Positions 397 to 34,474 of a stretch of DNA of 36,941 nucleotides are shown piece by piece. Below the pieces are notes generated by a model. The model was not told where the DNA came from and did not search any database. It saw only the letters and a program-made list of their open reading frames with translations. Within the stretch, counting starts at the first letter, position 1; each line of letters opens with the position of its first letter. The translations under genes and the position numbers were made by a program. This DNA comes from a virus (lineage: Duplodnaviria > Caudoviricetes): the IMG/VR virus record IMGVR_UViG_3300025000_000046, positions 1 to 36,941 of that record; one strand, 5' to 3'.

Positions 397-1257
397 TTAG
401 CCTGCCATCTCCTTTACTGCCTGTTTGATGTCAATCTGTTTTAGCGCCGCGTAAAGGCCAATTACACTCAGCGGGCGCATGTTGCATTTGTGGCAGCCGA
501 ATAGCTGCTTATCGAGGTCAACCCAGGCTGACGGCTCTTTGTCATTGTGAAACGGGCAGAGAACGTGCAAATAGCCGCGGTCTGGTTTGTAACCGGGGAA
601 AAAGCTCTCAATCCTGTACCGGCTCTTTGCCCGCTCCATCGGCGTAAGAACGCCAGGAAGAAGCGCGGCCTGTTCTGCCTGCTCCCAAATGTCGCCGGTC
701 GGCAGTTCGAGATTTTGGACCGGGGCGACGGGTGCCAGATTATCGCGCTCGTAGGTGGCCTGTTCGAGCATTTCAGCGGGGACTACATCGGAAAGACTTT
801 CGATAATTGGGAAATAGAGCGGGCGCAAGGATTTATAAATATGCCCGCTTGGGTGAGTGGAGCCTGCTCCAACGATATAGCCCGAGGTTTTGAAATCGCA
901 GTCAGGCAGCTTCATATTTGGTAAAACTTCCAGCAGACAAAAAACAACATGTATTCCCCGGCTGGTTTTACTCATGTATGCATTATCAAGAGCTTTTGTA
1001 TTATCCAGCGTCCATAATTGCCATTCATAAAAAGCCGCCATCGTATCGAAGTCTAAAGTACAAATTCTTTGCCAGCCCATTACAATTCCATAATTCCGTA
1101 ATTCAGCGGGAAACCATTGGCGCAATTCTAGATCTGTTGGCAATCTATCTTGATAGATTTTCCATGATGGGACGGCTGGAGTTTTGGCGCGGTATTTAAT
1201 TGGGAAAACGGATATTCCCATATCAACAAATTGTTTTGCCTGCTGATAAACGCTCAT
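397..1257 (-). CDS. Bifunctional primase-polymerase (Prim-Pol) N-terminal domain with C-terminal CHC2-type zinc finger
   Basis: GISVFPI...KTPAV..WK.YQ, NYGIV, LDFD, TSRGIHV, GYIVGAGSTHPSG.Y motifs; C-terminal CPFH.D..PS...FGCHKC. Confidence 0.85.
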   Translation of the reverse strand: MSVYQQAKQFVDMGISVFPIKYRAKTPAVPSWKIYQDRLPTDLELRQWFPAELRNYGIVMGWQRICTLDFDTMAAFYEWQLWTLDNTKALDNAYMSKTSRGIHVVFCLLEVLPNMKLPDCDFKTSGYIVGAGSTHPSGHIYKSLRPLYFPIIESLSDVVPAEMLEQATYERDNLAPVAPVQNLELPTGDIWEQAEQAALLPGVLTPMERAKSRYRIESFFPGYKPDRGYLHVLCPFHNDKEPSAWVDLDKQLFGCHKCNMRPLSVIGLYAALKQIDIKQAVKEMAG

Positions 1258-1582
1258 AATATATTTATCCGCGCAAATTCTCCAAAGTATTTTATAGCCG
1301 CGTCATTATATGCTCTGGCAGCTTCCTCTGGAGTATAAAAATATCCTAAAATAATATGCCGGTTTTCTATTCTTATTTGAGCATACCATTTCTTTTTTCT
1401 ATCTCTCTTGTCAAACGAAACTCCCTTATACCCACTTGTATTTTTAGCGGTCATGTCTCTGTTGCGCATATTTTCCGACTTGCTGCAAACACGCAAGTTT
1501 TCTTTGCGATTATCTAATTTATCCATATTGATGTGATTGGCTTCTTTTTGATTGCCTGCAATTCTTGATCAGATAGGTACAT
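1254..1582 (-). pseudogene. Truncated or frameshifted HNH-AP2 homing endonuclease
   Basis: NHINMDKLDNRKENLR (HNH remnant) and NTSGYKGVS...WYAQI...LGYF.TPEEAARAYN.AA.KYFGEFA (AP2 domain); the RBS-preceded ATG at 1582 is in a different frame. Confidence 0.75.
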
Positions 1583-1605
1583 TTTTGCCTGTTCTCCTGT
1601 CTCTA

Positions 1606-1633
1606 ATTATACTCTAATTAGTTAGTTCTGCAA
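1606..1633 (-). promoter_or_regulatory. Sigma70-like promoter with AACTAACTA box
   Basis: TTGCAG-16-TATAAT on the minus strand; spacer contains AACTAACTAA; AGGAG and ATG downstream. Confidence 0.55.
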
Positions 1634-1748
1634 GAAGCAATTTCCACTCATCATAAAGACGGCAAAACTTCTCCGGCTCCTGCTTTTCGTCCGTGTTGTT
1701 GAGTTCCTCAAAAACCTGTGCAGCGGTGCGGATTTCGATTGTAGTCAT
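1614..1748 (-). CDS. Hypothetical protein (44 aa)
   Basis: Hand translation MTTIEIRTAAQVFEELNN...; tightly packed in the leftward operon. Confidence 0.5.
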   Translation of the reverse strand: MTTIEIRTAAQVFEELNNTDEKQEPEKFCRLYDEWKLLLAELTN

Positions 1749-1753
1749 TTCGT

Positions 1754-1930
1754 CTAGCTTTCTTCTAGTTGTTTCAAAAGAGCCGGTAGGTCTAAGTCTG
1801 GTGACCGTCGGCGCAACTCCGCCCGCGTCGCTTCATCGGCGCGCTGGTATTCCAAGACTAAAATCCTGATGACACCTTTTATCGGCGTTAGGTAATTGTG
1901 TTGCGATGTCCAGGGTGCGTTTCTTGCCAT
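1754..1930 (-). CDS. Hypothetical protein (58 aa)
   Basis: Hand translation MARNAPWTSQHNYLTPIKG...; purine-rich leader; operon packing. Confidence 0.5.
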   Translation of the reverse strand: MARNAPWTSQHNYLTPIKGVIRILVLEYQRADEATRAELRRRSPDLDLPALLKQLEES

Positions 1931-1963
1931 GTTCTCTCGCTTTCTCCCGGCTTTTTTGCCGGG

Positions 1964-2155
1964 TGTAACAGATGTCCCAGATGTAACGTGTTACTGTATA
2001 AAGCTGTATAAATGTGTTTAACTTTGTTAGATATTATCTGTTACATCTGTTACAGTTATCTATATAATAGTGCCTGATTTTACTATTGTGTTACACGAAA
2101 TTCGCTGTAACAGATCGTGAAAAAGAGCCGGGATTAGCTGTGATTATCTGTTACA
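1964..2155. other. Putative replication origin A (TGTAACAGAT iterons)
   Basis: TGTAACAGAT/ATCTGTTACA at 1964, 2036, 2045, 2106, 2146 around an AT-rich core, between the helicase and primase genes. Confidence 0.65.
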
Positions 2156-3143
2156 TAAAGCTCTCGGCTATCCGTTGTGCCATCAGTGACGGCCAGCCGT
2201 TGCCGATGATCTTGCAGGCCAGCGCGGTATTATCTGGCAACTGATACCAGTCTGGGATTGACTGAAAGCGGGCAAGGCCACGCGGGGAGATTTTGACAAC
2301 ACGACCGGCGGAGAGCCAGGCGCGATGTGCGCCTTTCTGCGTTGACGTTACTGTAAAAATGGGTTGCGTATTATCGGAAACTGTCACCGTTCGGCTCGCG
2401 TTCATTCCGTCGACAATAAACGCTCTCATACTTGCCTGATTACTATTCGCCGTAATAGTTCCTGCTGGTTTTGTTTCGTCGTAAACGGTCAGAGTGTCAT
2501 CATATCCGCCCTGCGCAAATAGCAAAGTTTTATACTCATCCGGCAGTCTTGCCAGTTGCCAGTCCGCAAACTGTGACGGCTCAAGCGTGTCAATAATATC
2601 TTCAACTGCCGCATACCAGCCGACCCACTCAATCGGGGCGGGCAAGGGCGGCACAAAACCGCCACGAACGGCGCGAACAATCAATCGGCGGCGCGTCTGC
2701 GGTACTCCAAAATCTGCACTATTTAGGATGCTTGCATTATGCCAGTATCCGTTATCATCAAGCGTCTGGATAATGCCCTTGTAGCTTTCAAAGTGCCGGT
2801 ACGCGCTCACATTTTCAATTGTGACCGTATCGGGCTTGTGATGGGTTATGTACTCTGATACTTTGCGGGCTGTGTCTATGTCAATCTGCGCCTCGCTCCG
2901 GTTCTGATTTGCGACACTTGCGCGGGCGCAAACCGGTGATGCGTGAAAGTGATTTACCCAGGGATAGGAGCGGACATCTTCATCTCGAATATCAGCCACG
3001 CGGATATGGTCGCCCAGGTTCAGGCGGTACACGTTCGCTATCTTTGCGTCATACTCGTTTGCAAAAGTCAGTTCATAACCAGCGGCACGAAAACCAATAT
3101 CAGCCACGCCGCCGCCTGAAAAGAAACTACCGCAAGTTTTCAT
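2151..3143 (-). CDS. C5 cytosine DNA methyltransferase
   Basis: FFSGGG (motif I), HASPVC (IV), IENV (VI), GVPQTRRR (VIII), IGNG (X); likely start MKTCGSFF at 3143. Confidence 0.93.
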   Translation of the reverse strand: MKTCGSFFSGGGVADIGFRAAGYELTFANEYDAKIANVYRLNLGDHIRVADIRDEDVRSYPWVNHFHASPVCARASVANQNRSEAQIDIDTARKVSEYITHHKPDTVTIENVSAYRHFESYKGIIQTLDDNGYWHNASILNSADFGVPQTRRRLIVRAVRGGFVPPLPAPIEWVGWYAAVEDIIDTLEPSQFADWQLARLPDEYKTLLFAQGGYDDTLTVYDETKPAGTITANSNQASMRAFIVDGMNASRTVTVSDNTQPIFTVTSTQKGAHRAWLSAGRVVKISPRGLARFQSIPDWYQLPDNTALACKIIGNGWPSLMAQRIAESFM

Positions 3144-3273
3144 TTTTGCATTTCTTGAGATATTCATCAACGGTGCAGGTCAGGCCCAAAGCCTTGATGC
3201 GCAATTCCGCAATTCTGCGGATGGTCTGGGTGGTTCTGTCAATCTGTGTTTGGGTTGGTTTCTGGTCTGTCAT
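3127..3273 (-). CDS. Hypothetical protein (48 aa)
   Basis: AGGAG RBS, ATG 3273, directly downstream of a promoter, overlaps the methylase start. Confidence 0.55.
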   Translation of the reverse strand: MTDQKPTQTQIDRTTQTIRRIAELRIKALGLTCTVDEYLKKCKNENLR

Positions 3274-3329: not shown

Positions 3330-4820
3330 TTATGGTATACCAGTTTTGGTGCTTATCCCATAATACCCGCGCACGTTTACGCCGCCTACTCGGCGCTGGA
3401 TAGGTTTCTCCAAACCCAGCCGGGTGAGGGCTGACGCCATCTTCCGCGCGTCGATTTCAATACCCGCTTTCAGCCCGCCGGCGTCTTTGATGTGCTGGAT
3501 AATATCGATGCTGGCCATCCAATAAAACACATTGCCGGGGTCGATTATAAAATGTCTGACAATCGTCTCTTCGACTAAATCCATCACCTGATAAGCCTGG
3601 TTGATTTCATCGGCGCGGGCGGCTTCGGCGTCTGATAAATCCCACGGCTCCCCGTTGAGATACAGTTGGTACGCCTGCGCCCAAACCTGGTCGACATCAA
3701 TTGAGCGTGTGTATCCGCGCCAGTCGACATCGGTTAGGTGAGCGGTCATAAATCTGCTGCTGCCGGTAGGGTCATTGAAAAAGCCCATCTCGTTATTAGC
3801 CGTGGCGATGAAGCTGGTCATGGCGTTCCCGGCTGTCTGGTACTTTCGATATGCCCCCCGCTCGTTGACGTTCTCCTGGGTAAGGAACGCTTTCAAGGCT
3901 TCCCGGTCGGCGCGGCGGGCGACGGTTCCCCACTCGCTGACCTCCCATATCCATTTTGAGAGTAATAAAATCCGGTGGTCTTTGTTGTCAGGGGCGATCG
4001 GCCCTTCCTGAAAATACTCGATTAGCGGGGAGGCAAGCCAAGAAACGAATTTGCTTTTACCGATGCGCTGCACCCCGTCCAAAATCAGCACGCGATTACG
4101 CACGGGGCGATAAGCGCGGGCGACGGCCCCAATTAGCCAGCGGCGGAGAAACTCGCCGAAGATGGATTTTTCGTCTTTGAAATAACCTGCTAAATCGTCA
4201 ATCGGCTCACCCCCGGCAAATTTCAACCGCTCCAGATAGTTTTGTATCGGGTGATAGCGCGTCCGGTAAGCGGCGGCGGTGTACGCATCTTCGACCGCTT
4301 TTGTGTCCTTCACCCCGGCGCTTCTGATTTTGGCGCGGATTTCAGCGGCAATGTAATCATTGATCGGGTGGCCGTTCACCTCGACCATGTCCGTGCAGCG
4401 ATTGAGGCGAAACCGATAACCGAAGTGGTCTAAAAGGCTCATGTAAAACTCAGGCGATTTGTTCGCATTCTGGCCGGTTTGCATGGATGCCCACCACGCC
4501 TGTTTGTTTCTGACTTTCGTTTCGATAACCTGGGTGAGGACGGCGGCGAGATTAGCCGGGAGGCGGGAGATTACTTCGGCGAAAATCTCCCCCTTTCTTG
4601 CAGGCTCTTTTGCGCATTTGTCCCAGATTTCGGCCCACGGTTCACCCTGCGGCGGGCGCTGGTCGGGGATTTCTTCGAGCGCCAAAAACATCACAACGGC
4701 GGCCATCCCTGCCAGAAAATCGGGCTGCGTGCCGAATGCCTGCTCTAAAATATCAGCTTGGGTTTGAGATAGGCCATCGGCGATCAGTTCGGCGCTCAGG
4801 GGTTTTGATTGTGTCATCAT
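3330..4820 (-). CDS. VapE/VirE-family P-loop helicase (primase partner)
   Basis: YHPIQNYL, FLRRWLIGAVAR, Walker A GVQRIGKS, WIWEVSE, FIATAN...DPTGSSRF, QVWAQAY; ATG 4820 overlaps the upstream stop. Confidence 0.88.
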   Translation of the reverse strand: MMTQSKPLSAELIADGLSQTQADILEQAFGTQPDFLAGMAAVVMFLALEEIPDQRPPQGEPWAEIWDKCAKEPARKGEIFAEVISRLPANLAAVLTQVIETKVRNKQAWWASMQTGQNANKSPEFYMSLLDHFGYRFRLNRCTDMVEVNGHPINDYIAAEIRAKIRSAGVKDTKAVEDAYTAAAYRTRYHPIQNYLERLKFAGGEPIDDLAGYFKDEKSIFGEFLRRWLIGAVARAYRPVRNRVLILDGVQRIGKSKFVSWLASPLIEYFQEGPIAPDNKDHRILLLSKWIWEVSEWGTVARRADREALKAFLTQENVNERGAYRKYQTAGNAMTSFIATANNEMGFFNDPTGSSRFMTAHLTDVDWRGYTRSIDVDQVWAQAYQLYLNGEPWDLSDAEAARADEINQAYQVMDLVEETIVRHFIIDPGNVFYWMASIDIIQHIKDAGGLKAGIEIDARKMASALTRLGLEKPIQRRVGGVNVRGYYGISTKTGIP

Positions 4821-4996
4821 TGGGGGTTGTCCATGGTGAATTGTACGCGGCGGGCAAAAGTAAATAATCCTACTCGCAACCAAAGAAAAGCATCATCATC
4901 ATAAATTCCTTTTCGCCATAAGCGATATGAAATTTTTATTTCGTTTGCCAGAATTGCCCGCAGTTCCGGGTTCGTGATTTCAGGATGCGTACCCAT
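4817..4996 (-). CDS. Hypothetical protein (59 aa)
   Basis: Hand translation MGTHPEITNPELRAILANEIK...; ATGA coupling to the helicase gene. Confidence 0.5.
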   Translation of the reverse strand: MGTHPEITNPELRAILANEIKISYRLWRKGIYDDDAFLWLRVGLFTFARRVQFTMDNPQ

Positions 4997-5351: not shown

Positions 5352-5391
5352 AAGAGCGCCGGGAAAAGCAAGCACCAATCCCGGCGCTCTT
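5352..5391. terminator. Terminator-like hairpin built from the AAGAGCGCCGGGA motif variant
   Basis: 13-bp perfect inverted repeat 5352-5364/5379-5391 just after the stop of the 5397-5624 gene. Confidence 0.6.
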
Positions 5392-5396
5392 GCGTG

Positions 5397-5624
5397 TTAC
5401 TCGTTCCGCGCCTGTTCGCAAACCTGGTGCAGGATGCGCCCAGCGGCATACAAATCGAGCCGGGGATTTTCGGCGCGCAGTTCCTCGCTGGCTTTGATCC
5501 AGGCTTTCTCGTATCGCTGGCTTTGTTCCAGGGTCGGCTCGTTTTTGCCGATTTCGCGGATGACAGCCTGTAGTGCCTTTTCGCTTTCGGTCAGGTTGGT
5601 AATTCGCTGGCTAAAGGTTTCCAT
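5397..5624 (-). CDS. Hypothetical protein
   Basis: 75-aa ORF, AAGGA RBS. Confidence 0.65.
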   Translation of the reverse strand: METFSQRITNLTESEKALQAVIREIGKNEPTLEQSQRYEKAWIKASEELRAENPRLDLYAAGRILHQVCEQARNE

Positions 5625-5768
5625 TGGTTTTTCCTTTCATTTTTTCCAGACATTCCGGGCAGTTGACCTTTGTAGGCGCGTCGGTAATCCATTCCCACTG
5701 TTTGCCGCAGACGGATTTTAGTTCGTCGGCTTTGGCGCTTTGCGTGTAATGGACATAGTGATCGGCGG

Positions 5769-6005
5769 TCATCTCAAAATCTCCTCGTCGGTTTTTACAA
5801 CCATCGCCAGCACTACAGCGCGGGCGATTGCACGAGTGGTGATAAAGTTTTTGCGCCCGTTGCGTTGGGAGTGGACTTCGGCGTTGCGCAGCATTCGCGC
5901 CGTAAGCAGTTCGATTTTCGCTTGCGCGTCGTCTGTCATTTCGCTGGCTAAAATTTCCAGCGTGTCCGGGTTGCCGGTAGGTTCGTAGGCTGATTGTCGT
6001 TGCAT
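5769..6005 (-). CDS. Hypothetical protein
   Basis: 78-aa ORF directly following the vWA gene. Confidence 0.6.
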   Translation of the reverse strand: MQRQSAYEPTGNPDTLEILASEMTDDAQAKIELLTARMLRNAEVHSQRNGRKNFITTRAIARAVVLAMVVKTDEEILR

Positions 6006-6015
6006 GGTTTTCTCT

Positions 6016-6576
6016 CTATCCGGCCAAAAGGCCCTTTACACTGGTTGCCAGTTGCTTGGCGCTAAAATCCTTGATAGCCTGCCCGCCCGAAGCCTGGGCG
6101 AGTTGCTGTAAAAACTTCTGCCCGTAGCCGCCTTCGCGCCCGATAAAGATCGTATCGAGTTTGTTTACAAACTTGCGGGCTTCTTTGAGCGCCGTCTCTT
6201 CATCGTCTGGCTGCCCGTCTGAGATGATGATAAATTTCATATCGGGGACATCGGCCACGCGGATGAATGAAAGTGCGTTTGCCAGGCGGGTCGAGCCGCC
6301 GTAATTGAAGGGCGTCCCACCGGGGCAAAACATCACGTCATCCGAAAAACTGATGACGGCGACTTTGCCAGGCAAAGAAGCCTGTACGCCTGCCAGCTCG
6401 AGGCAAGCCCGCTCGTACCGGCTCTTTTGCAATCCGTCACTATCGGCCATCGACCCGGAGGTGTCAACCAAAACAATCGCATCCGCGCCGATGAACGTCT
6501 CGGCCAGACTGTGGCCCGTCTGGGCTGATGTTGCTGCCAGCGAGCCGGGGACATAGGTTTTTTGGATGCTATCCAT
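6016..6576 (-). CDS. von Willebrand factor A (vWA) domain protein
   Basis: MIDAS motif VLVDTSGSM, GGSTRLANAL, IIISDGQPD, FLQQLAQASGG. Confidence 0.85.
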   Translation of the reverse strand: MDSIQKTYVPGSLAATSAQTGHSLAETFIGADAIVLVDTSGSMADSDGLQKSRYERACLELAGVQASLPGKVAVISFSDDVMFCPGGTPFNYGGSTRLANALSFIRVADVPDMKFIIISDGQPDDEETALKEARKFVNKLDTIFIGREGGYGQKFLQQLAQASGGQAIKDFSAKQLATSVKGLLAG

Positions 6577-7072
6577 TGCGGCTCGCCTTGATGATTTTAG
6601 CGGCAAGTTTAACTTGCGCTTCGTAATTACTTTTTGCGCCGTATTTCTCGCGGATGGCTGTTACGGCTTCTTTTTCGTTGCCCCAGAAACAACCCAGCTG
6701 GAACATGACACAATTGCCATGATCCACGGCGTACCCCATACGGCCAGTTTCACCGATTGGCCCGAATGAAAAAACGCCAGTAGCCCCGCGTAGGTCGGCC
6801 CCGGTCAGGTCGGCCCCGCATAGGTCGGCCCCGCGTAGGTCGGCCCCGGGCAGGTAGGCCCCGGTCAGGTCGGCCCCGGTCAGGTCGGCCCCGGGCAGGT
6901 AGGCCCCGCGTAGGTAGGCCCCGGTCAGGTCGGCCCGGGTCAGGTCGGCCCCGCATAGGTCGGCCCCGGTCAGGTCGGCCTTTTCTTTTACGGCGGCAAT
7001 AACAGTGTCGCGGACGTTGTCATCCGCGTTTTCAAATAATACTTCCTGTGTCCATCTGTTTTTAATTTGCAT
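6569..7072 (-). CDS. Pentapeptide repeat protein
   Basis: About 13 A(D/Y)L(T/R/C/P)G repeats; AAGGAG RBS before ATG 7072. Confidence 0.92.
   Translation of the reverse strand: MQIKNRWTQEVLFENADDNVRDTVIAAVKEKADLTGADLCGADLTRADLTGAYLRGAYLPGADLTGADLTGAYLPGADLRGADLCGADLTGADLRGATGVFSFGPIGETGRMGYAVDHGNCVMFQLGCFWGNEKEAVTAIREKYGAKSNYEAQVKLAAKIIKASRNG
6785..6980. repeat. 15-bp tandem repeats encoding the pentapeptides
   Basis: Degenerate GGTCGGCCCCGGTCA units. Confidence 0.9.
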
Positions 7073-7094
7073 TAGATTGTTCTCCTTGCCTACT

Positions 7095-7174
7095 ATTATA
7101 TAACTAACTAGTATCGTGTCAAGTAGCAATTTCTAAAATTGCCTATTGACAGCTAACTAACTAGATGATATTAT
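7095..7174. promoter_or_regulatory. Divergent early promoters, each with a TAACTAACTAG box in the spacer
   Basis: Minus strand TTGACA-16-TATAAT (7122-7095); plus strand TTGACA-17-TATTAT (7146-7174); located where gene orientation switches. Confidence 0.8.
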
Positions 7175-7213
7175 TACTACATCAGGCAGACACATTCAAA
7201 CAAGGAGAAAACT

Positions 7214-7705
7214 ATGTATACAAGATTTATGGATATGCTCTCCGGCGGGAGCCAAAAAGAAAAGTTTTCACACTGCTACATCGAAGCATCAGAAGGTGTG
7301 GCAAAGATTGTTTTTCACAATCGCTTCGGACATGACCCAGAAAACGTAACTTGCTCTTGTTGCGGGGATGATTACTCTATCAGCGAATACGAAACGCTGG
7401 AAGATGCAACTGCATATGAAAGAAATTGTGAGTTTTCATACTTCTTTGACGATACCGGAGAACATGCCGGAGGGGAAGAGAGAGTAAAGTATGATGGAAC
7501 TAAAAAGGCTTGGTGTATTTCTGGCAGGCCTGTTTCTGGTAGATATATCGAAAATCAAGACCCCGAAATAATTCGCATCCGTCAGTCGTGCAATACTGAT
7601 CCCAATGATCCGCGGGGAAAATATATTCCACTTAGCGAGTATGTTTCCCGTGACGATGTTGTTGTTATTCGTGCTGGCGAAATCGCAAATTCGGACAAGC
7701 GATAA
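7214..7705 (+). CDS. Hypothetical phage protein (CSCCG motif)
   Basis: 163 aa, AAGGAG RBS, first gene of the rightward arm. Confidence 0.8.
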   Translation: MYTRFMDMLSGGSQKEKFSHCYIEASEGVAKIVFHNRFGHDPENVTCSCCGDDYSISEYETLEDATAYERNCEFSYFFDDTGEHAGGEERVKYDGTKKAWCISGRPVSGRYIENQDPEIIRIRQSCNTDPNDPRGKYIPLSEYVSRDDVVVIRAGEIANSDKR

Positions 7706-7781
7706 CGCGCAGAAACACCCCAACCCCGGCCCGGTCGTAACTGACCGGGCAACAACCCCCAATCAAAAGGAGATAAAACAC

Positions 7782-7970
7782 ATGCAAGATCAAGCAACTA
7801 TCCCGTTTGACCCTCAGAAAGTTAGGCAGACAAAAACCTACTCGATCACTATGGCCGACGTGGCCCGCGTGAAAGAGATGGGCGAATTTTTGGGCGTCTC
7901 GGACGCTGAAACGCTCCACCGCGCAATCGCCAAACTTTACGGCGAATTGTTCCCGGCGTCGGTGGCCTGA
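7782..7970 (+). CDS. Probable ribbon-helix-helix (CopG/Arc-like) regulator
   Basis: AAGGAG RBS; TKTYSIT (strand) MADVARVKEMGEFL (helix) GVSDAETLHRAIAKLY (G-x-S turn plus helix). Confidence 0.6.
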   Translation: MQDQATIPFDPQKVRQTKTYSITMADVARVKEMGEFLGVSDAETLHRAIAKLYGELFPASVA

Positions 7971-8218
7971 TGGCTGCGCCCGTTGGAGTGCTAAACGGCA
8001 ATCACCGGCACAACCGGCTGACCACTGACGAGATGCTGGACGCCACGGAGCCGCGCCCATATGACAAGAAACTGGCTGTGATAAAAAACAGCCTGGGAGG
8101 TGCTTTTGACGAGTGGTATCAAAACATCGTAAACCTGCCCGCGCCCAAATGGCGCGCGGCAATCGACAATCAAATCAGCGCCCTGTGTGACGCTGACAAA
8201 AATCAGAACAGGAGATAA
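7970..8218 (+). CDS. Hypothetical protein
   Basis: 82 aa, start overlaps the upstream stop. Confidence 0.6.
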   Translation: MAAPVGVLNGNHRHNRLTTDEMLDATEPRPYDKKLAVIKNSLGGAFDEWYQNIVNLPAPKWRAAIDNQISALCDADKNQNRR

Positions 8219-8225
8219 GGCAACC

Positions 8226-9002
8226 ATGAACAACGAAATTGTAAACGACGGCTTTGAAGAAATCGCAGCATCGGAAACTCAAAAAACGGTTTTCCGTAAA
8301 TTCGGCCAATGCTTTATCGAAACTTACCCGGCGGTGTGGTTCAAGGGTAGCCAGCCGGAGCGCTTTGATGAGCAAATCCACAAACTGGCTGACCGGAAAA
8401 TGATGATTGAAATTCGTGTTGTGCCGATCGATGAGATGAATTTTCAATCTCATTCAGACTTTCCCGATTTTCGCAGCATTGCCACGAGCAAAGAATGGAA
8501 TGAAGTAACTCGCGCGTCAATTTTGGGTCATTATGCCGTTGATCCTACTGACATCAAAGCAACGGCGCAAATTCTCCGCTCTCTGAATGGCGGTTTTGTC
8601 GAAACCGTTCAGGTTCCGAATGGCAAGTTTTACACCAAAAAAACAACCGGGGAGAAGAAAGAGCTTTCTGATTTTCTGTTCGTGAGCATTTTTGAAAGTC
8701 AGGATGCTTGCGTGTCGGCCTGCTTGAGCGAGAAAGCAGGTGAGCCGGTAAGCGCTCTGAGTGATGCCGACTTCCCGGCGATCCCCGCGCAGGCTGCCCC
8801 GTCCCCGGTGGCCGCGCCTAATAACGACATCCTTTTGAAATTTGCGCAGGCGATTGTTACCGCCGCCGCGAAGGATGACAAGGACCCGGTAAGCGTGACC
8901 GCGAAAGTTGACGCGCAACTGTCCGTCTCCCCGCTGATGAAGGGTAAATACAGCGCTGAAAGCCCCGAAGTGCTGGAAATGATTATGACGGCCTGCCAGT
9001 AG
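8226..9002 (+). CDS. Hypothetical protein (possibly ssDNA-binding, by position)
   Basis: Long ORF with RBS; lies in the recombination module; family not recognised. Confidence 0.7.
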   Translation: MNNEIVNDGFEEIAASETQKTVFRKFGQCFIETYPAVWFKGSQPERFDEQIHKLADRKMMIEIRVVPIDEMNFQSHSDFPDFRSIATSKEWNEVTRASILGHYAVDPTDIKATAQILRSLNGGFVETVQVPNGKFYTKKTTGEKKELSDFLFVSIFESQDACVSACLSEKAGEPVSALSDADFPAIPAQAAPSPVAAPNNDILLKFAQAIVTAAAKDDKDPVSVTAKVDAQLSVSPLMKGKYSAESPEVLEMIMTACQ

Positions 9003-9061
9003 GCAACCCTGCAACCAAAGCCCGCTCAGAAATGGGCGGGTATTTTTATCAGGAGGAAACG

Positions 9062-9238
9062 ATGAATATTTTCTGTAAAATCAGATGGTGGCTTTATCAA
9101 AACGAACCAATGATTTGCGCCAAATGTGGGAAAATCGTCAGGCGCAAAAATATCTGGCAAACGCTCCTCACTACCGGCGCTTTTGTGCTTCTCTGCAAAA
9201 AATGTCTTGACGAGGTTTACACCCCATGGCAAAACTGA
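9062..9238 (+). CDS. Small CxxC...CxxC zinc-binding protein
   Basis: AGGAGG RBS; CAKC and CKKC motifs. Confidence 0.6.
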   Translation: MNIFCKIRWWLYQNEPMICAKCGKIVRRKNIWQTLLTTGAFVLLCKKCLDEVYTPWQN

Positions 9239-9963
9239 CCTTCATCCAAATTGACAGCCGGGAGGATACCTGGCTAAAAAACTGGCAAGCCCGCCCACCC
9301 GAACCGCTGAAAGATGTGCCGATTATCGTGGAGCAACTCGAAACCGGGGACGCTCATTTGTGGCTGGATAATGGCACGGTGCTAAACGTGGAGAGAAAGA
9401 CTCCATCCGATTTTTTGAACAGCATTCCGACAGATCATATTTTTGACCAGTGCGCCCGGATGATGGTACAGCGCCGGGAGTTCAGCTGGCTGCCATATCT
9501 GATCATTACCGGCGAACTTTCGCGCAACCCCCGGACGGGTAACACGATAATCGCCGGTAGCCAACACGGGGAGGGCTGGAACTGGAACGCGGTGCAGGGC
9601 GCGCTGCTCAGTCTCCAAGAGAGCGGCTTACCGGTTGTCTTTTGCCACTCGGACGTGGATTATGCCGATGCGCTTTTGAGACTGGCAAACCGTAACCACA
9701 CTCTTATGACAATCAACCCGCAAAAAGAGATCATGGCCCTTTCAGCTGATGAGCGCGTTCTGTGCGCTTTTGACGGGATTGGCGCACTACTGGCCGCTGA
9801 TATTTTGGCCGCTGTTCCGTCGCCCGCCTGGGCCTTGGATGTGCTGACGGATGTTTCGCCCACCGCGCCGAAAATAGCCGGGATTGGGGAGGGGCGCAAG
9901 AAGGCGATCCGCCGCGCCCTGGGGTTAGAAGATGGAAACAAACTCTCCGTGACCGCCGTCTAA
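9226..9963 (+). CDS. ERCC4 (XPF/Mus81-like) nuclease, probable resolvase
   Basis: IDSRE, LETGD, VERKTPSDFLNSI...FDQ motifs; C-terminal HhH-like GIG motifs. Confidence 0.85.
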   Translation: MAKLTFIQIDSREDTWLKNWQARPPEPLKDVPIIVEQLETGDAHLWLDNGTVLNVERKTPSDFLNSIPTDHIFDQCARMMVQRREFSWLPYLIITGELSRNPRTGNTIIAGSQHGEGWNWNAVQGALLSLQESGLPVVFCHSDVDYADALLRLANRNHTLMTINPQKEIMALSADERVLCAFDGIGALLAADILAAVPSPAWALDVLTDVSPTAPKIAGIGEGRKKAIRRALGLEDGNKLSVTAV

Positions 9964-9972
9964 TTTTGCCTA

Positions 9973-10001
9973 TTGACAATTAGTTAGTTATCGCATAAAA
10001 T
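9973..10001 (+). promoter_or_regulatory. Sigma70-like promoter with TAGTTAGTTA box
   Basis: TTGACA-17-TAAAAT; same TTGCCTATTGACA context as the 7146 promoter. Confidence 0.75.
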
Positions 10002-10024
10002 ATAACTATTCTGGAGCACATTAG

Positions 10025-10180
10025 ATGACAACAAACGCCCCCTTTGAAGATATTCTTTCCGGCAAACGAGCATCGATTTTGATACCGATGAGCACTACCG
10101 GCTTACCGGCGAATGAAAACACAAAAGAAAATCGCGGTGAACCGATCCCGCCCCGAACTAATCAGAATGGAGAAAACTAA
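10025..10180 (+). CDS. Hypothetical protein (51 aa)
   Basis: GGAG RBS after the promoter; hand translation MTTNAPFEDILSGK... Confidence 0.4.
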   Translation: MTTNAPFEDILSGKRASILIPMSTTGLPANENTKENRGEPIPPRTNQNGEN

Positions 10181-10182
10181 CA

Positions 10183-10938
10183 ATGGAAGATAAACAGACT
10201 TACGAGTTAGCAACAACCGCCCCGCAGGAGCGTCCGATTACCCCGGCGATCTGGAACATGATTTCGAAAGAAGTCGCCCCGGTTCTTGGCCGCGCCCACA
10301 TGATGAGCGCCGATAAAATGAGCAGCGTCCTGCTCAAAGGTTACGAGCTAGGCTTGAGTATGACCGCCAGCATCGAATTGGTGCAAAACGTGCAAGGCAA
10401 AACCTCCCTGGCCCCACGCGGCGCGCTGGCCCTGGTGCAAAACTCCCCGCTGATAAAAGATGTCAAAATCAACCGCCTGGATGACAAGGGTAAGTTTATC
10501 GGCTACGAGTGCAAAATCGAGCGCATGAACGGATTTGCTTATACTGCTCGTTGGACGATGGAACAGGCGCGCGCGGCTGGGTTAGTCAAGGCCGATAGCG
10601 GCTGGGAAAAATACCCCGAAAATATGTGCATGTGGCGCGCCGTCGGTTTTGCCTGTGACGTGGCCGCGTCTGATATTACCTGCGGCCTGACCGCTTTTCT
10701 CAAAATGCCCGAGCAGTACAACATCGGCATTGACGACGGCGGTAATATTGTGGACGCGGTTGTTACGCCCGCCGCCCCCCGGCCTGACCCGGTTGTGACC
10801 GAAGTCGAACGGCTGTGCAACGTCTACGGAGCCGAGGCGGTTTTACTGGCTAACAATGGGCAAATTCCGGCGAGCCTGGAAGAGTGCCTTGCGGCTGAAA
10901 AATCGCTACTGGAAACCGCCGAAGATGTGACGGATTAG
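10183..10938 (+). CDS. RecT/Red-beta-like single-strand annealing protein
   Basis: KGYELGL, VQGK, WTMEQARAAGL...WEKYPENMCMWRAVGF pattern. Confidence 0.7.
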   Translation: MEDKQTYELATTAPQERPITPAIWNMISKEVAPVLGRAHMMSADKMSSVLLKGYELGLSMTASIELVQNVQGKTSLAPRGALALVQNSPLIKDVKINRLDDKGKFIGYECKIERMNGFAYTARWTMEQARAAGLVKADSGWEKYPENMCMWRAVGFACDVAASDITCGLTAFLKMPEQYNIGIDDGGNIVDAVVTPAAPRPDPVVTEVERLCNVYGAEAVLLANNGQIPASLEECLAAEKSLLETAEDVTD

Positions 10939-10945
10939 CACAATC

Positions 10946-10983
10946 AAAAGAGCCGGCAGGATGCTTTCTTTCCGGCTCTTTTT
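10946..10983. terminator. Terminator-like inverted pair of AAAAGAGCCGG
   Basis: 10946-10956/10972-10982, with A- and T-tracts, just after the RecT-like stop. Confidence 0.7.
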
Positions 10984-10996
10984 CAGGAGATGAGAC

Positions 10997-11302
10997 ATGG
11001 CAGACATAAAATGCAGTTGCGGACATGATGCAAGCGATCATATCGAAGATTATGGATGCAAGGGCGGGATTGATGATTATTGCGATTGCCCGATGGATGC
11101 AAAACAGATTTACGAACAGCGTATCTACTCGCTCGAAACCGATGTAATCCACGCCCGGCGGGTGGCTGATGAGCGGCAGGAAGTTATCAAAGAAATCACG
11201 GGCTATCTTCGAGAGGCTCTCGATAATGTTTATCGATACGACTTGGTAACTCAGTATCATAAAATCAAGGTCAATTTGATGAAGGTGTCCGATGGCAAAT
11301 AA
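10997..11302 (+). CDS. Hypothetical protein with Cys/His-rich N-terminus and coiled coil
   Basis: AGGAG RBS; CSCGH...H...C...CDC. Confidence 0.7.
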   Translation: MADIKCSCGHDASDHIEDYGCKGGIDDYCDCPMDAKQIYEQRIYSLETDVIHARRVADERQEVIKEITGYLREALDNVYRYDLVTQYHKIKVNLMKVSDGK

Positions 11303-12095
11303 CATCACTGTTACCCCGGAAAACGGCGCTTACCGGGTAGAATTTCCCTATAATCCGCGCATGGTTGAAGCAATCAAATCAACAATCCCCTCCACTGGTC
11401 GCAGTTGGGACGGGACGCGCAAGTGCTGGATGGTCGCTGCTCAATACCGCCGGGAAGGTGAACGCGCTCTTGGGATGACCTTCCCCGACATGGCCGCCTC
11501 GAAGCCGGTCATTGAAACCCGCCTGCTGGAAGTCCATTACATCGGGCAATGTAAAGAGCGCGCCCCCGGTGACATCTCCGCAATGGGTATGGACGCCAAA
11601 GGTAATTGGGCGGTAGTTTTCCCGATGAACACCCTTACCGGCTGGTTTGATGGTGGTTATCACACTCAGACCAACCAATTGACACTCTACAGCGTTTTGG
11701 GCGCGTCTCAGTCGGCAACGGATGACGAAATCAAAACAGCCTACCGGCGAATGGTCAAACAGTGGCACCCGGACGTGTGCCACGAAACAAACGCACATGA
11801 GATGTTTTTACGGATCCGTAAAGCCTATGACATGCTGAGTAATCCGCGCAATCGTGACCGGTATGATGCTGGTCTAAAGTTGGTTGCCAGCCTGGAAAAA
11901 AAGCCCGTAAGAGCGACTGATATTTATCGCTCTCCGTTGCGCTGTGGTTTTATTATGGCTGAAGGCGCGCAGGTGCTGGGGCGTTTTGTTGTCTTTCGCG
12001 TTTTGGCATGGGAGGACATTGTCAATCAAAGCGGGCAGACGTTGGTCGTATCCTGGCCCCTGGGAGCGGATGAACCGCAGAAGGTTTGGGCATGA
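11292..12095 (+). CDS. J-domain (DnaJ-like) protein with HARP-like N-terminal domain
   Basis: LYSVLG...EIKTAYRRMVKQWHPD...FLRIRKAYDMLSNPRNRDRYD; N-terminal FPYN...AIK...RSWD..RKCW. Confidence 0.85.
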   Translation: MANNITVTPENGAYRVEFPYNPRMVEAIKSTIPSTGRSWDGTRKCWMVAAQYRREGERALGMTFPDMAASKPVIETRLLEVHYIGQCKERAPGDISAMGMDAKGNWAVVFPMNTLTGWFDGGYHTQTNQLTLYSVLGASQSATDDEIKTAYRRMVKQWHPDVCHETNAHEMFLRIRKAYDMLSNPRNRDRYDAGLKLVASLEKKPVRATDIYRSPLRCGFIMAEGAQVLGRFVVFRVLAWEDIVNQSGQTLVVSWPLGADEPQKVWA

Positions 12096-12250
12096 TGAAA
12101 ATAAAAATAGCTATTTTGTCAATCATATCAAGCGGTTGGGTTTACTATATTACCAACCGACTTATTTACCATGAAGAGTTTTTATCCGCTTACGGCGTAT
12201 TTGTTTTGGCGGCAGCGCTTATGCTCCTGATACACGAAATAGAAAAATAG
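12092..12250 (+). CDS. Small membrane protein (52 aa)
   Basis: ATGA overlap with the upstream stop; two hydrophobic segments. Confidence 0.5.
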   Translation: MMKIKIAILSIISSGWVYYITNRLIYHEEFLSAYGVFVLAAALMLLIHEIEK

Positions 12251-12257
12251 TACCAAT

Positions 12258-12810: not shown

Positions 12811-12828
12811 GCGGAAGGGAATGGACAC

Positions 12829-13059: not shown

Positions 13060-13060
13060 T

Positions 13061-25053: not shown

Positions 25054-25884
25054 ATGAGCGCCATCGACAGAAACCATCTAATTAACGGGTATTTTACGCA
25101 CAACCTAAACGGGTGGACTGCTGCCGGTGGCGCTCAGTATTTGGCGAGTGATGGGGATGAGCATTTCGGAATGGCAAACCTACCAATTGGAGGCTCCATT
25201 TCGCAAGGCTTCGCAGTTGAGGCCGCCCGCTCGTTTTCGCTGCACATTTCGGCGAAGTCCCCATCCGGGGCACTCGTGGCGGGTAACGTCACCTACGCGA
25301 TCACAGACGGCAACGGCAATGCGGTAACGTCAAGCACCCTTACGGGCGCTCTTGCGGAATGGTCAGAAAACCTCGTCAATATTGGCCTGGCTGATGGTAC
25401 TACTTACACACTAACAATCACAAACGTGAGCGCCGCCGGGGATGTGCGTATTGATGATGTTTGGATGTGGTTTGTCCCCGTCACCCGCGCACAAATCGCC
25501 GCGCAGGTGGGTAACAAGCTGGGACGGATTGCAGATGAGCGCAGCCTGACCCCTACTCCCGCCGGGACAATGACCGAAGGCTCTTACACCTATGCGATAG
25601 ATGCCGCTTTGCGCAACGTCGGTGCGATTGACCCCCAGACGGGGAACCCGGATGTGCGCTGGTTGAATGCTCAGTCTGTCCAATTGGTGATTGATGCGAC
25701 CCGGCGCGAAATGCTCGAACAGTTGCAATCAGATTATGCCGTCGAAGTTGATACACGCACAGGCCCCTATCAGCAGTCTCTTTCCCAAAAACGCGCCGCA
25801 ATTACCGAAATGCTGGGTGGCTCTGGTGAAAACGGGCCCAACACAGCCGGGATAGTGGTGCGCCGGATGGGCTTCGATGGCTGA
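25054..25884 (+). CDS. Head-tail adaptor-like protein with N-terminal carbohydrate-binding-like jelly roll
   Basis: NHLINGYF...GW...IDDV CBM-like pattern, then a helical domain; neck position. Confidence 0.6.
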   Translation: MSAIDRNHLINGYFTHNLNGWTAAGGAQYLASDGDEHFGMANLPIGGSISQGFAVEAARSFSLHISAKSPSGALVAGNVTYAITDGNGNAVTSSTLTGALAEWSENLVNIGLADGTTYTLTITNVSAAGDVRIDDVWMWFVPVTRAQIAAQVGNKLGRIADERSLTPTPAGTMTEGSYTYAIDAALRNVGAIDPQTGNPDVRWLNAQSVQLVIDATRREMLEQLQSDYAVEVDTRTGPYQQSLSQKRAAITEMLGGSGENGPNTAGIVVRRMGFDG

Positions 25885-26203
25885 TTACTCGTTTGCGTCG
25901 ATGGCGCGGGTATTGTATAGCCGCAAACGCGGCAACCTTACCGGCTCTTTTGACACCCTGCCGGGGCTGATGGGTACGCCGCGCGCGCCCGTGGACGCTG
26001 AAACCCGCTTACGACTGGGGATTGATACCCCAAACGTGACTTGGGAAATCCACTTCCAGGGCGCGCCGGATATACGCAAGGGTGACCGGCTGCTGCTCAG
26101 CGGTTTAGAGTATCCCGTTTTCCACTGCGAAAAATGGCCCTGGCTGCCGAGCGATGATACCCGCCTCCGGGTGATAGTTGAGGATGTGCGCAATGGCGTA
26201 TAA
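25877..26203 (+). CDS. Head closure protein (probable)
   Basis: DIRKGDRL...EYPV pattern; position. Confidence 0.65.
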   Translation: MADYSFASMARVLYSRKRGNLTGSFDTLPGLMGTPRAPVDAETRLRLGIDTPNVTWEIHFQGAPDIRKGDRLLLSGLEYPVFHCEKWPWLPSDDTRLRVIVEDVRNGV

Positions 26204-26654
26204 ACCTGAACTGTCCATCGAAGGCATCCAGGAAGTCCAGGCGCGAAACGTGCGTCGGATTGCCGCACTCAAGCCTACGGGCGCTGCTGGTCAGGCTGTA
26301 AAAAACGCCATTATCCAATTGCATCGGTACGCCGTGAGTATTACTCATGTCGGTCGGTATGCGCAGACCGCAAGCGGGCGCTACACATGGGCAAAGCCGC
26401 CGAAGCCTGGCCGAGGTGGGGGCGCTCTCCGGGCATCTCACCGAATGCGCGTCAATGGTTTAGATGGCGCTGTCTTTATTGACAAATCCAGCCGCAACCC
26501 GCTGACTGGTAACAAACCGGTCGAATATGGTGTTTACGAAAATGCCCGCGGTGGTGAACACGCTTTTTATGATCGGACAGTTGGCGAAATCGGCGACCGG
26601 GTTGTAGAGCAGGCCAAAACGGCCATCCGGGAGGCGGCACTCTATGGCAAGTAA
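26193..26654 (+). CDS. HK97 gp10-like neck protein
   Basis: IEGIQEV, GALRAS, EYGVYE, HAFY patterns; position. Confidence 0.65.
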   Translation: MAYKPELSIEGIQEVQARNVRRIAALKPTGAAGQAVKNAIIQLHRYAVSITHVGRYAQTASGRYTWAKPPKPGRGGGALRASHRMRVNGLDGAVFIDKSSRNPLTGNKPVEYGVYENARGGEHAFYDRTVGEIGDRVVEQAKTAIREAALYGK

Positions 26655-28045: not shown

Positions 28046-28471
28046 ATGATACATACAATCCGCAATCAATCGTTTGAGATCATCGACGAGCCTCTGCAGG
28101 AGCATGTCGAGGCGTGGGAAAAAGCCGCGCGGGCTTTGCGCTCGGAAGATGCAAAGCCGTACTTACGCGCAACGATTGACCAAATGAAAACCATCAACGT
28201 TACCGCACAATCTCTCCCGGCTCTTTTGGTCATTTTTGCGGAGGCGGCAAAGAACATTATCGCTGCTGTGGAGATACTTGAAGCGAACGAGACTTTGACC
28301 ATGTCCAGCAATCGCGGGATGATGGTCAAGGCCGCGATCGAGGCAGGCTGGATAAAAGCGCCGGTAATGGCGGCTGATGACGTGGACAAAATGAAGCCTG
28401 GGCTTGTTGGCTGGTTGGCTGAGAAAATTGGCGCTTTGTACCTTGAGGCGACTGAAATCCCAAAAAACTAA
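28046..28471 (+). CDS. Tail assembly chaperone (gpG-like)
   Basis: Between tail tube and tape measure; ends in slippery CCCAAAAAAC-TAA. Confidence 0.75.
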   Translation: MIHTIRNQSFEIIDEPLQEHVEAWEKAARALRSEDAKPYLRATIDQMKTINVTAQSLPALLVIFAEAAKNIIAAVEILEANETLTMSSNRGMMVKAAIEAGWIKAPVMAADDVDKMKPGLVGWLAEKIGALYLEATEIPKN

Positions 28472-28746
28472 TACTGGCGGTTGCTGATTATGCCGAAGAT
28501 GATAACAATCAGCAGCCGCCAGAATTGGCCGCCGCGTTTCAGGTCGAGCAGTGGGGCGCGCCGGCTCTTTTTCCTGGCGTTATCCCGGTGCAAAAAATCC
28601 GCCGGTGGACGGCTTGCCTGAATGTTTACCGCGCAATGAAATCCTATCAGGCAGGCGCGGCCAATTTTGCGCAATGGGCAGAGCGCAACCCCGGCCAATT
28701 TGAATTAGTCGCCAAAATCCGTGAAATGAGGGCGCTCCAATGGTAG
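28459..28746 (+). CDS. -1 frameshift extension of the tail chaperone (gpGT-like)
   Basis: The -1 frame is open from the slippery site (KLILAVADYAEDD...) through the 28525-28746 ORF. Confidence 0.7.
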   Translation, partial: PKKLILAVADYAEDDNNQQPPELAAAFQVEQWGAPALFPGVIPVQKIRRWTACLNVYRAMKSYQAGAANFAQWAERNPGQFELVAKIREMRALQW

Positions 28747-32653: not shown

Positions 32654-32664
32654 AGGATCGCACA

Positions 32665-33846
32665 ATGCCAGATAAAAAGTTATCTGAAGAAACAAATCAA
32701 ATCACAATGCTCAGTGCCACGGATCGTATCCGCGTTGTCAATGGCATGGGTGGCACACCTGCTACCGGCTTTATCGAAATGATGCAGCTTTCGCCATTTA
32801 TCCCTGGCCTGACGAACACAGAGACAATATCCGCAACGCGGGCATTAGTCGATGCAGACCTGCCAGTACAGCGGCTTACTCCATCTGGCGCAAAACGAAC
32901 GGTAACATTGCCAGCGGCAGCGGCCACAAATCATCCGTTTTATATTATCAACGCAAGCACTGACTACAGTCTGGTGATTGACGCGTTGGGTGTAATTGGC
33001 CCCGGCCAAAGTGGGATGTTAGTCTCGGATGGGACAGCCTATACTCTGCTGGCACCCTTGATAAACAATACGGTTATCCAGTCGGTAACAACAGCTAATG
33101 TTAGCGCGCTTAGTGGCAAGTCTTATTTTCTTGATTTGTCCGGTCTAACCGCAAATAGAAATTTTGTAGTCCCAGCGGGCGCGGTTGGTGATGAAATCCT
33201 GGTCAATGTCACCATTGGCGCTAGTGTACACGCGCTTATTATCATTGGCGCAAGTGGGGTTACTATCAATGGCGGGTCGGCGGCAACCGAATGGAGTCGC
33301 CTATTTATCGCAAATGAAAGTGTCCGTCTGGTAGCAACTAGCAGCACAGGTTGGCGAATTGTCAATGATGGTCGTCTGCCGTGTATTTCTGTTTTCGAAC
33401 GAACCACGTCGGCGGCAAATACTACCCACACGCCCGACACAGACACAAAAGCCGACTGGAACAGTTTACCGAAAAACGTGGGAAGCTGCGGGGATACAAC
33501 AAATGACCGGTTTACCGTTCGGCGCACCGGTACATATGAGGCCAGCGGCGGTTATGCGCCCGCCGCAGCAATTACAGATCAAAAGTGGGTGAATGTAAAG
33601 GTGAAAAAAAACGGATCAACTCGTATTAACAATGCGTCTCAACGCCAATCGGCAGTAACATCATCAAGCATTGCTGGCGTAGCAATTACACCAAAGCCGG
33701 TCGACCTGGCCGTGGGGGATTATCTTGAATATTTTTTCAACACCGAAGAGGCGAACATTGGATTACTCAACACCGACTTTGCCGGTGGTGGCGCAAATCA
33801 GCTGGGGACGGTTACATTTTTCGCAGTCAAAGAAATACTAAGATAA
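32665..33846 (+). CDS. Tail fibre/receptor-binding protein
   Basis: MPDKKLSE N-terminus, RTVTLPAA and FVVPAGAVGD modules, C1q-like FTVRRTGTY...VDLAVGDYLE. Confidence 0.75.
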   Translation: MPDKKLSEETNQITMLSATDRIRVVNGMGGTPATGFIEMMQLSPFIPGLTNTETISATRALVDADLPVQRLTPSGAKRTVTLPAAAATNHPFYIINASTDYSLVIDALGVIGPGQSGMLVSDGTAYTLLAPLINNTVIQSVTTANVSALSGKSYFLDLSGLTANRNFVVPAGAVGDEILVNVTIGASVHALIIIGASGVTINGGSAATEWSRLFIANESVRLVATSSTGWRIVNDGRLPCISVFERTTSAANTTHTPDTDTKADWNSLPKNVGSCGDTTNDRFTVRRTGTYEASGGYAPAAAITDQKWVNVKVKKNGSTRINNASQRQSAVTSSSIAGVAITPKPVDLAVGDYLEYFFNTEEANIGLLNTDFAGGGANQLGTVTFFAVKEILR

Positions 33847-33857
33847 GGAGCAATATC

Positions 33858-34133
33858 ATGCAAGCACATTTACTGATTTTGGTACAAAAGGTAAGGGCCA
33901 TTGCGGCCCAGGAATTGGCGCTGCGCACCGCGATCGCAGAAGTCGATACGCTATACAACGGCGTACCAAACTGGGATGAAGCGCTTACCCAGGCGGAGAT
34001 TGACACAGTGCCGGCCTACGAAGCGGTAGGGCTAACTCCGCAGCAGGTAGCAGATGTGATCTACGCAGCCAAGCAGGCAGATGCTCAGATTGCCGGTAAT
34101 CTGCCGTCAATGTTTGTTTTAGCAAATATATGA
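33858..34133 (+). CDS. Hypothetical protein (possible fibre chaperone)
   Basis: AAGGAG RBS; last gene of the tail operon. Confidence 0.7.
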   Translation: MQAHLLILVQKVRAIAAQELALRTAIAEVDTLYNGVPNWDEALTQAEIDTVPAYEAVGLTPQQVADVIYAAKQADAQIAGNLPSMFVLANI

Positions 34134-34180
34134 TACAATAAAAGAGCCTTGTTCTCCCTAACGGTTTTTCTCCTGAGAAG

Positions 34181-34212
34181 GCAAACCCCCGACCTATTAG
34201 CCGGGGGTTTGC
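34181..34212. terminator. Hairpin between convergent operons
   Basis: GCAAACCCCCG...CGGGGGTTTGC 11-bp perfect stem. Confidence 0.7.
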
Positions 34213-34216
34213 TGAT

Positions 34217-34474
34217 TTAATGCTTAGTGTTGTGGCAGTCGCGGCAAAGAACCTGTAGGTCTGTTGGCTTCTCGTGCCATAGGTTGCTATAAACCTTGTG
34301 GTGGACATCCAACGGAACGCCCATTCTAAAACATCTAGCGCACTTCCTACCGGCTCTTTTGCGTGCCCGCTTGGCCGTGTTTATCCAGTGGCGCGAATGG
34401 AGATAAAAGAGCCTGTACCATTCCCGGCGCCCTAAGCCGTTCGATTGCTCTTACACTATATCGGCGATTATCAT
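34217..34474 (-). pseudogene. HNH endonuclease with in-frame TAA at codon 8
   Basis: Hand translation MIIADIV*EQSNGLGRREWYRLFYLHSRHW...KCARC...LDVHHKVY...DLQVLCRDCHNTKH*. Confidence 0.8.

Follow-up and report, generated by a model that had tools for sequence, protein, structure and literature searches.

A genome-wide word in a phage is likely the site where the phage's own primase-polymerase starts primers

We analyzed an 11-base word, AAAAGAGCCGG, that is dispersed through the IMG/VR virus record IMGVR_UViG_3300025000_000046 (36,941 nucleotides; the whole stretch is referred to as the window), a complete circular phage genome, possibly from groundwater DNA, that has a 127-base terminal repeat and carries terminase, portal, capsid, and tail genes. 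A preliminary description of the sequence had taken the word for an uptake signal or another mark of the host lineage or, alternatively, for part of a phage-encoded site system. Our data support the last of these: the word is genuine and, in the samples searched, phage-specific, and comparison among phages indicates that it likely serves as a recognition site for primer starts by the primase-polymerase that the phage itself encodes, of the archaeo-eukaryotic primase (AEP) type (positions 397 to 1257, minus strand), not as an uptake tag. As judged from the genomes compared, the word family co-occurs with the primase family and turns over by point change; likewise, the word changes with a swap of the primase and survives a swap of the helicase.

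Frequency and form of the word

All 13 exact copies of AAAAGAGCCGG were verified in position and strand (6 plus, 7 minus; 353 per Mb), against 0.03 to 0.9 expected under Markov models of orders 1 to 5. Copies with one mismatch numbered 13 rather than the five listed previously, giving 26 sites with at most one mismatch versus 1.17 expected (maximum 4 in 100 dinucleotide shuffles). Within the 49 curated genes, synonymous-codon shuffling yielded 0.09 exact copies (maximum 2 in 1,000 shuffles) versus 6 observed, and 14.3 copies of the 7-base core GCCGG(T/G)A (maximum 26) versus 47 observed, so that copies within genes exceed codon expectation. Genome-wide, the core occurs 63 times (35 plus, 28 minus), again without overall strand bias. 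It occupies all six reading frames, as had been claimed for the word, but the 6 exact copies within genes use only four of the six, and the other 7 of the 13 are intergenic (i.e., outside the curated genes).

Among the long forms of the site, 11 of 20 are intergenic, while intergenic DNA makes up 19% of the genome. This distribution, three hairpins described below, and an unassigned small open reading frame (ORF; 7782 to 7970) common to the window and its sister phage G405 would suit a transcription signal (operator, stoperator, or promoter) that is reused as a terminator. However, the word does not follow the direction of transcription (28 copies sense and 19 antisense), and in relatives its orientation flips while the gene strand does not; we consider such a signal extremely unlikely.

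The full site has the consensus MAA(A/G)AG(A/C)GCCGG(T/G)A, and 25 of the 26 sites have an A at position 13. Different bases precede subsets of the 63 cores (AAAAGA in 10, AAGAGC in 4, and AAAAGC in 3), and the site is therefore graded. Over the seven bases 5' of the core, the adenine content is 47%, compared with 27 to 30% 5' of near-miss words; read on the pyrimidine strand, this is a 3' flank rich in T. No flanking sequence was shared between copies past ~14 bases, and only 3 of the 13 exact copies reach in full the 16-mer to which many had been said to extend. A motif search by expectation maximization drifted on two loci (L034 and L035), and its output was discarded.

The sister phage, G405 (record 77% complete), is 65% identical to the window across 18 kb of coding DNA in the alignment and holds 12 copies of AAGAGCGCCGG and 89 cores. 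Eleven of the 29 window cores in aligned codons are retained in G405 versus a background of 11.7% (P = 2.6e-4), and the other 18 differ by substitutions; the pattern therefore fits selection with turnover rather than spread by insertion sequences (IS). An origin from IS ends, one of the refuting outcomes named in the preliminary description, or from miniature inverted-repeat transposable elements was rejected for the copies other than that at 34350, which lies beside an ISL3 remnant, as shared sequence is confined to ~14 bases or fewer and copies lie in gap-free codons aligned to G405.

Co-occurrence of the word with a primase family

The protein encoded at 397 to 1257 (286 residues) combines an AEP domain (PF09250) with a CHC2 DnaG-type zinc finger (PF01807) that follows the catalytic domain; no helix-bundle/PriCT domain was detected in it. 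Catalytic residues D69/D71, H103, and D121 are invariant among 19 homologues. The predicted structure (mean pLDDT, 83; linker 173 to 201 unresolved) matches pRN1 ORF904 best (E = 5e-11) and also the zinc-binding domain of DnaG (1d0q; E = 1e-4). The protein is thus predicted to have both the intact catalytic motifs and the template-reading domain expected of a primase that starts at defined sites, and it is the proposed reader of the word.

Phages related to the window through the capsid (77 to 83% identity) carry 0 to 2 cores per locus, and the three longest records of capsid relatives among those tested have no early gene in common with the window (tblastn). In capsid relatives G406, L036 to L038, and L079, the core is nearly absent (0 to 1 copies), under expectation, and CTCAGTA, a word introduced below, was found 50 times versus 63 expected across 67 capsid/terminase loci. 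Other dispersed repeats occur near capsid homologues in L046 and L084, e.g., a GC-rich unit present nine times in L046.

Searching with the primase led to phages of other capsid types, for which the top word, obtained unseeded, was CTCAGTA. A second primase search added 52 loci, and a metagenome scan yielded three, one of them the same phage. We clustered 87 proteins at 90% identity into 72 primase clusters and found a word of this family in 52 (47 with CTCAGTA, 3 with CTCGGTA, and 2 with GCCGGKA; P < 3.3e-4 each); among clusters not used in defining the words, 37 of 48 were positive. CTCAGTA or CTCGGTA was found in 0 of 12 control records without this primase, so that the word co-segregates with the primase family. 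Left out of the 72 were L271 (another protein), L147 (broken frame), six distant Prim-Pol fusions (L149 to L153 and L156), and ERCC4 loci in which the primase was off the locus or which duplicated a contig already counted. Word-negative clusters fall mostly in two supported high-GC branches, one of which includes the G109 prophage.

Word carriers amount to ~50 phages with a GC content of 41 to 62%, and the primases of the CTCAGTA relatives are only 27 to 39% identical to that of the window. Intermediate dialects were GCC(A/G)GTAG in L274 (primase off the contig) and CTCGGTA in L208, L215, and L232. On the opposite strand of G429 (1 to 40000) lies a divergent zinc-finger primase, and the top 7-mer of that record under the codon null is GCCGATA (18 versus 3.2), one base off the window core. 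A structural-gene fragment (L083/G424) has CTCAGTA 9 times versus 1.5, with the primase off the contig. Searching viral contigs for the inverted-pair pattern gave 32 matches, all lone hairpins without a further copy.

Exchange of the primase and of the helicase

The early module of the window comprises genes for the primase-polymerase, a VapE-like helicase (3330 to 4883, minus strand), vWA, an ERCC4 nuclease, and RecT-like and DnaJ proteins. The part holding vWA, ERCC4, RecT-like, DnaJ, and ORF 8187 (6016 to 6606 and 9226 to 12095) is common to dozens of uncultured phages, and its helicase slot is exchangeable. Four unrelated types occupy that slot in word carriers (VapE, D5-like, a third, and AAA_25), and the helicase was ruled out as the reader since the word persists through these swaps.

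Comparing nine word-positive with nine word-negative genomes, we found that only the primase, ERCC4, and ORF 8187 were present in all positives. An ERCC4 search recovered five loci (four near-whole records and one fragment) with a Prim-Pol/PriCT-1/D5 fusion in place of this primase, and CTCAGTA was enriched in 0 of the 5. The same early module was also seen with RepB- or NrS-1-type primases (L303/G426, L321/G427, and L319), there with the words GGCTCACA and AACACAGC. More specifically, G426 (L303) has a RepB-type primase and 25 copies of GGCTCACA versus 0.6 expected; G427 (L321) has the same word, with its primase off the contig; and L319, with an NrS-1-type helix bundle, has AACACAG 18 times versus 1.5. 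The complements of the G426 and L319 words contain GTGA and GTG, both of which, along with TTTGGTTA, are sites measured for the NrS-1 primase (PMC8718748).

Another small, fast-evolving phage protein linked to the primase gene (an initiator, helicase loader, or restart factor) that recognizes the word in double-stranded DNA in an orientation-dependent manner would likewise give linkage to the primase and the origin-facing polarity reported below. The palindromic dialect TACT(C/G)AGTA of G410 and G414 would suit a dimeric binder of this kind, and proteins that are shorter than 40 amino acids or very diverged escape clustering. Yet no gene beyond the three named above occurs in all nine positive genomes, the word is lost from phages that keep the ERCC4 module but have exchanged the primase, and the asymmetric dialects of G411, G412, and G415 argue against an obligatory dimer; we regard a linked protein as an unlikely reader.

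The gene-content comparison bears equally on a methyltransferase target resembling HIP1, in which a phage DNA methyltransferase and methylation-linked repair bias would maintain the word. The CCGG within the core, the sharpness of the 7-mers, and the C5 and N6/N4 enzymes encoded in the window would be in keeping with such a target. However, nothing in G405 (77% complete) matched the C5 enzyme. Across the nine positive and nine negative genomes, the word did not go together with any methyltransferase family, and co-occurrence with a cognate enzyme was thus not found. Polarity would not be expected either, making this account most improbable. The C5 gene is located at 2151 to 3170, and the N6/N4 gene (394 to 1 and 36941 to 36576, minus strand) spans the terminal repeat.

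Direction of the word relative to origin-like clusters

AT-rich clusters of direct and inverted repeats, from which origins were inferred, were present in 16 of the 29 genomes or loci that we scanned; in 12 of the 16, the cluster immediately precedes the primase gene, and two share the repeat of the window. About the primase-proximal repeat cluster of 49 word-positive loci, CTCAGTA was counted 116 times on the plus and 67 times on the minus strand upstream, versus 42 and 112 times downstream (odds ratio, 4.6; P = 3e-11). With the loci oriented on the primase gene, the corresponding counts for CTC(A/G)GTA were 135 and 89 upstream, 16 and 108 within the gene, and 54 and 130 downstream. Part of the excess within the gene reflects a recurrent Thr-Glu position, and we therefore relied on the flanks. 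Unlike the word, long ORFs in these loci are mostly on the plus strand throughout. The CTCAGTA flip was the strongest among 496 frequent 7-mers (odds ratio for anagrams, 1.08), base skews keep their sign, and the flip persists inside plus-strand ORFs (P = 4e-5) and is seen in 31 of 36 loci. On either side, words thus face the origin-like cluster, the arrangement expected of Okazaki primers if two forks diverge there.

The window has two such clusters, one at 1964 to 2155, upstream of the primase gene, with five iteron-like ATCTGTTACA repeats in both orientations, and one at 22037 to 22289, with six. They consist of the same 10-base repeat and lie nearly opposite each other on the circle. Two regions of this kind, built from different repeats, are present in G405 as well (~9380 to 9480 and 25800 to 26300), and a two-origin phage is possible. 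The extremes of GC skew were uninformative.

The word in genomes of the likely host class

The host class is probably Anaerolineae, because the names of capsid relatives point to Anaerolineales/Anaerolineae and such relatives occur in four loci of Chloroflexota genomes. In 401 genomes of this class, AAAAGAGCCGG reached at most 21 copies in 5.0 Mb (4.2 per Mb), similar to a reversed control; this set represents only part of the class, with completeness not stated and the true host not identified, and two of its members (G351 and G393) are unpublished, the result being independent of both. RCTCAGTA peaked at ~56 per Mb in 301 genomes, and the degenerate long form occurred 0 to 3 times in each of 14 genomes of an order-level scan. 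The single prophage among the 401 genomes (G109) is without any word and is therefore of no use for comparing DNA inside and outside a prophage; in the host DNA around it, the core was found 67 times versus 68 expected.

These counts bear on a host uptake sequence, or other host mark, that the phage would have acquired from an unsampled species. The occurrence of the word on both strands and within genes, the terminator-like inverted pairs, and the dialects all resemble neisserial DNA uptake sequences (DUS; PMC2397512), and the 401 genomes are only a class sample. Nonetheless, the hundreds to thousands of host copies that the preliminary description named as support for an uptake sequence were not seen in the 401 genomes, nor was enrichment in the sets of 301 and 14. 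The word is missing from the nearest relatives by capsid, which have a different replication module; the word family follows a phage gene across ~50 phages rather than a host lineage, and its flip at the origin-like cluster would not be predicted by uptake. We consider an uptake sequence very unlikely, and the earlier proposal of a host-lineage mark is not upheld in these data.

Words of the Chi type occur at raised frequency in the chromosome of the host. A Chi-like or restart site recognized by a host helicase-nuclease or primosome would agree with a short, asymmetric word that is polar relative to the origin in relatives, but there was no enrichment in the sampled host-class genomes, and the word tracks the phage primase rather than capsid kin. 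This reading, too, has very little probability.

Observations that weigh against priming at the word

Several results tell against the primase as reader. In the window, the core alone is only ~3-fold enriched and does not top the list under the codon null. Its spacing is no more even than random on either strand (P = 0.84 and 0.29; 0.82 and 0.25 in G405), and in seven CTCAGTA genomes 3 of 14 strands reached P < 0.05; even spacing does not strictly define priming sites, as those of T7 cluster, too (PMC12839067). The word is absent from 15 of the 72 primase clusters and weak in 5, including the G109 prophage. Three of the five fusion-primase phages have a 1.6- to 1.9-fold excess of GCCGG(T/G)A, a size that chance 7-mers also attain in control genomes under the same null, and G425, a close-kin fragment without a primase gene, has no word like those found with RepB- or NrS-1-type primases. 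Residue Q251 of the zinc finger was refuted as a mark of word carriers, as 10 new loci with G at that position carry the word. Counted from the G405 side, conservation was 11 of 57 (P = 0.06, not significant). Characterized primase sites are mostly 3 to 8 bases long, and the long form here spans 13 to 14.

The window itself shows only weak polarity: of 60 cores, 36 point toward the nearer cluster (P = 0.08), with 16 of 20 within 6 kb doing so at 22037 to 22289 (P = 0.006, one of several tests) and 7 of 15 near 1964 to 2155. G405 has none (39 of 86). The strongest mechanistic evidence therefore comes from the CTCAGTA relatives, and as these loci are related, their P values overstate independence. 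Two opposed origin-like clusters or recombination-driven forks could explain the weak polarity in the window, and the presence of two clusters could likewise cancel polarity in G405.

Positions of the word and neighboring features

The one-mismatch copies and cores are scattered from 619 to 36512. An exact copy at 1776 to 1786 (plus) lies antisense in a 58-residue ORF and is aimed at the first repeat cluster, within which another is located (2121 to 2131, plus). Further copies fall in the vWA gene (6418 to 6428, minus; read as KSR) and in TerL (18719 to 18729, plus; KEP). Three are antisense in ORFs, namely, 25941 to 25951 (minus; ORF 25877 to 26203), where G405 has a core at the same place; 28217 to 28227 (minus; ORF 28046 to 28471), where G405 holds its own dialect; and 28561 to 28571 (minus; ORF 28525 to 28746). 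Of the residue contexts given previously, KSR (primase and vWA), KEP, KRAG (MuF), PAL, and GSF were recovered, but those assigned to HNH were not, the HNH/AP2 ORF at 1254 to 1526 being without any copy.

Two of the terminator-like hairpins are true inverted pairs of exact copies, as described earlier (10946 plus with 10972 minus, spanning 10946 to 10982; 15646 plus with 15670 minus, spanning 15646 to 15680), whereas in the third (21145 to 21174) the plus-strand copy at 21147 has a partial partner of 9 bases only. The three fold with z scores of -4.0, -5.5, and -3.2. The dialects of the sister phage also occur in the window, AAGAGCGCCGG at 5352 (plus), 5381 (minus), 17285 (plus), and 22305 (minus), within 5352 to 22315, and AAAAGCGCCGG at 9174 (minus), 13781 (plus), and 28354 (plus).

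The remaining exact copy (34350 to 34360, minus) is intergenic and adjoins a truncated ISL3 transposase gene (34481 to 35110, minus), near which motif-like words occur at 34140, 34350, and 34405. ISL3 relatives were found in 1 of 301 genomes, on a cut contig. The window strongly avoids GANTC, GGACC, GATC, TTAA, and several 6-base palindromes, which suggests many host restriction systems.

Discussion

In the mechanism that we propose, the helicase would load at the iteron-like clusters, and the primase would start primers on the single-stranded template at the word, which selection would write through genes and spacers on both strands. The template would be the pyrimidine-rich strand, with 5'-T(A/C)CCGGC followed by the T-rich 3' flank, and the zinc finger would read both core and flank. 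The primer would then have the sense of the purine-rich strand and would probably begin at the purine-G pair (i.e., after GCC in GCCGG(T/G)A and after CTC in CTCAGTA). Long forms are probably the strongest sites, and the inverted pairs probably represent a second use as terminators.

On balance, we lean toward a broader conclusion, namely, that AEP primases with a fused DnaG-type zinc finger form a family that reads words of 7 to 14 bases and that a whole group of Anaerolineae phages rewrites its genomes to match. If true, there would be primases whose starts are confined to long words of choice, a primase swap would entail genome-wide changes of the word, and the word and its polarity would reveal specificity, origin, and fork direction from sequence. 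Primase swaps in one backbone provide a natural experiment, with three primase types set against three word families, and priming at long words by zinc-finger AEPs would extend the known range of primase specificity. It would also explain how such a phage may keep its primase from acting on DNA other than its own, and it offers a testable account of genome-wide phage words that resemble uptake tags. In the open-access literature, we found no account of these words or of primase words from phages of Anaerolineae.

Among known systems, the DUS of Neisseria and the uptake signal sequences of Pasteurellaceae (PMC2397512) are similar in being asymmetric 10- to 13-mers that occur on both strands and in genes, form inverted terminator pairs, and have dialects. 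The window word differs in its absence from the sampled genomes of the likely host class, in following a phage gene, and in being polar about an origin-like cluster in relatives. The sites of the NrS-1 primase and pRN1 ORF904 share with the proposed system the catalytic fold, a defined start word on single-stranded DNA, and, for NrS-1, a phage-encoded replicative primase; in contrast, the window primase has a DnaG-type zinc finger and no detected helix-bundle/PriCT domain, and its word comprises 7 bases, extends to 13 to 14, and is genome-wide. Compared with DnaG and T7 gp4 (PMC2978363 and PMC12839067), the catalytic domain is AEP rather than TOPRIM, the core exceeds 3 to 5 bases, and the register is inferred. 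Likenesses to these primases are that a zinc domain would set specificity, two residues of the zinc-binding domain switching the start triplet in DnaG (PMC2978363); that the 3' flank is A/T-rich, T7 primase favoring such a flank over ~8 to 10 bases (PMC12839067); that the words may lie on the lagging-strand template, as DnaG and T7 sites do; and that the template forms of the words hold CTG or CCG.

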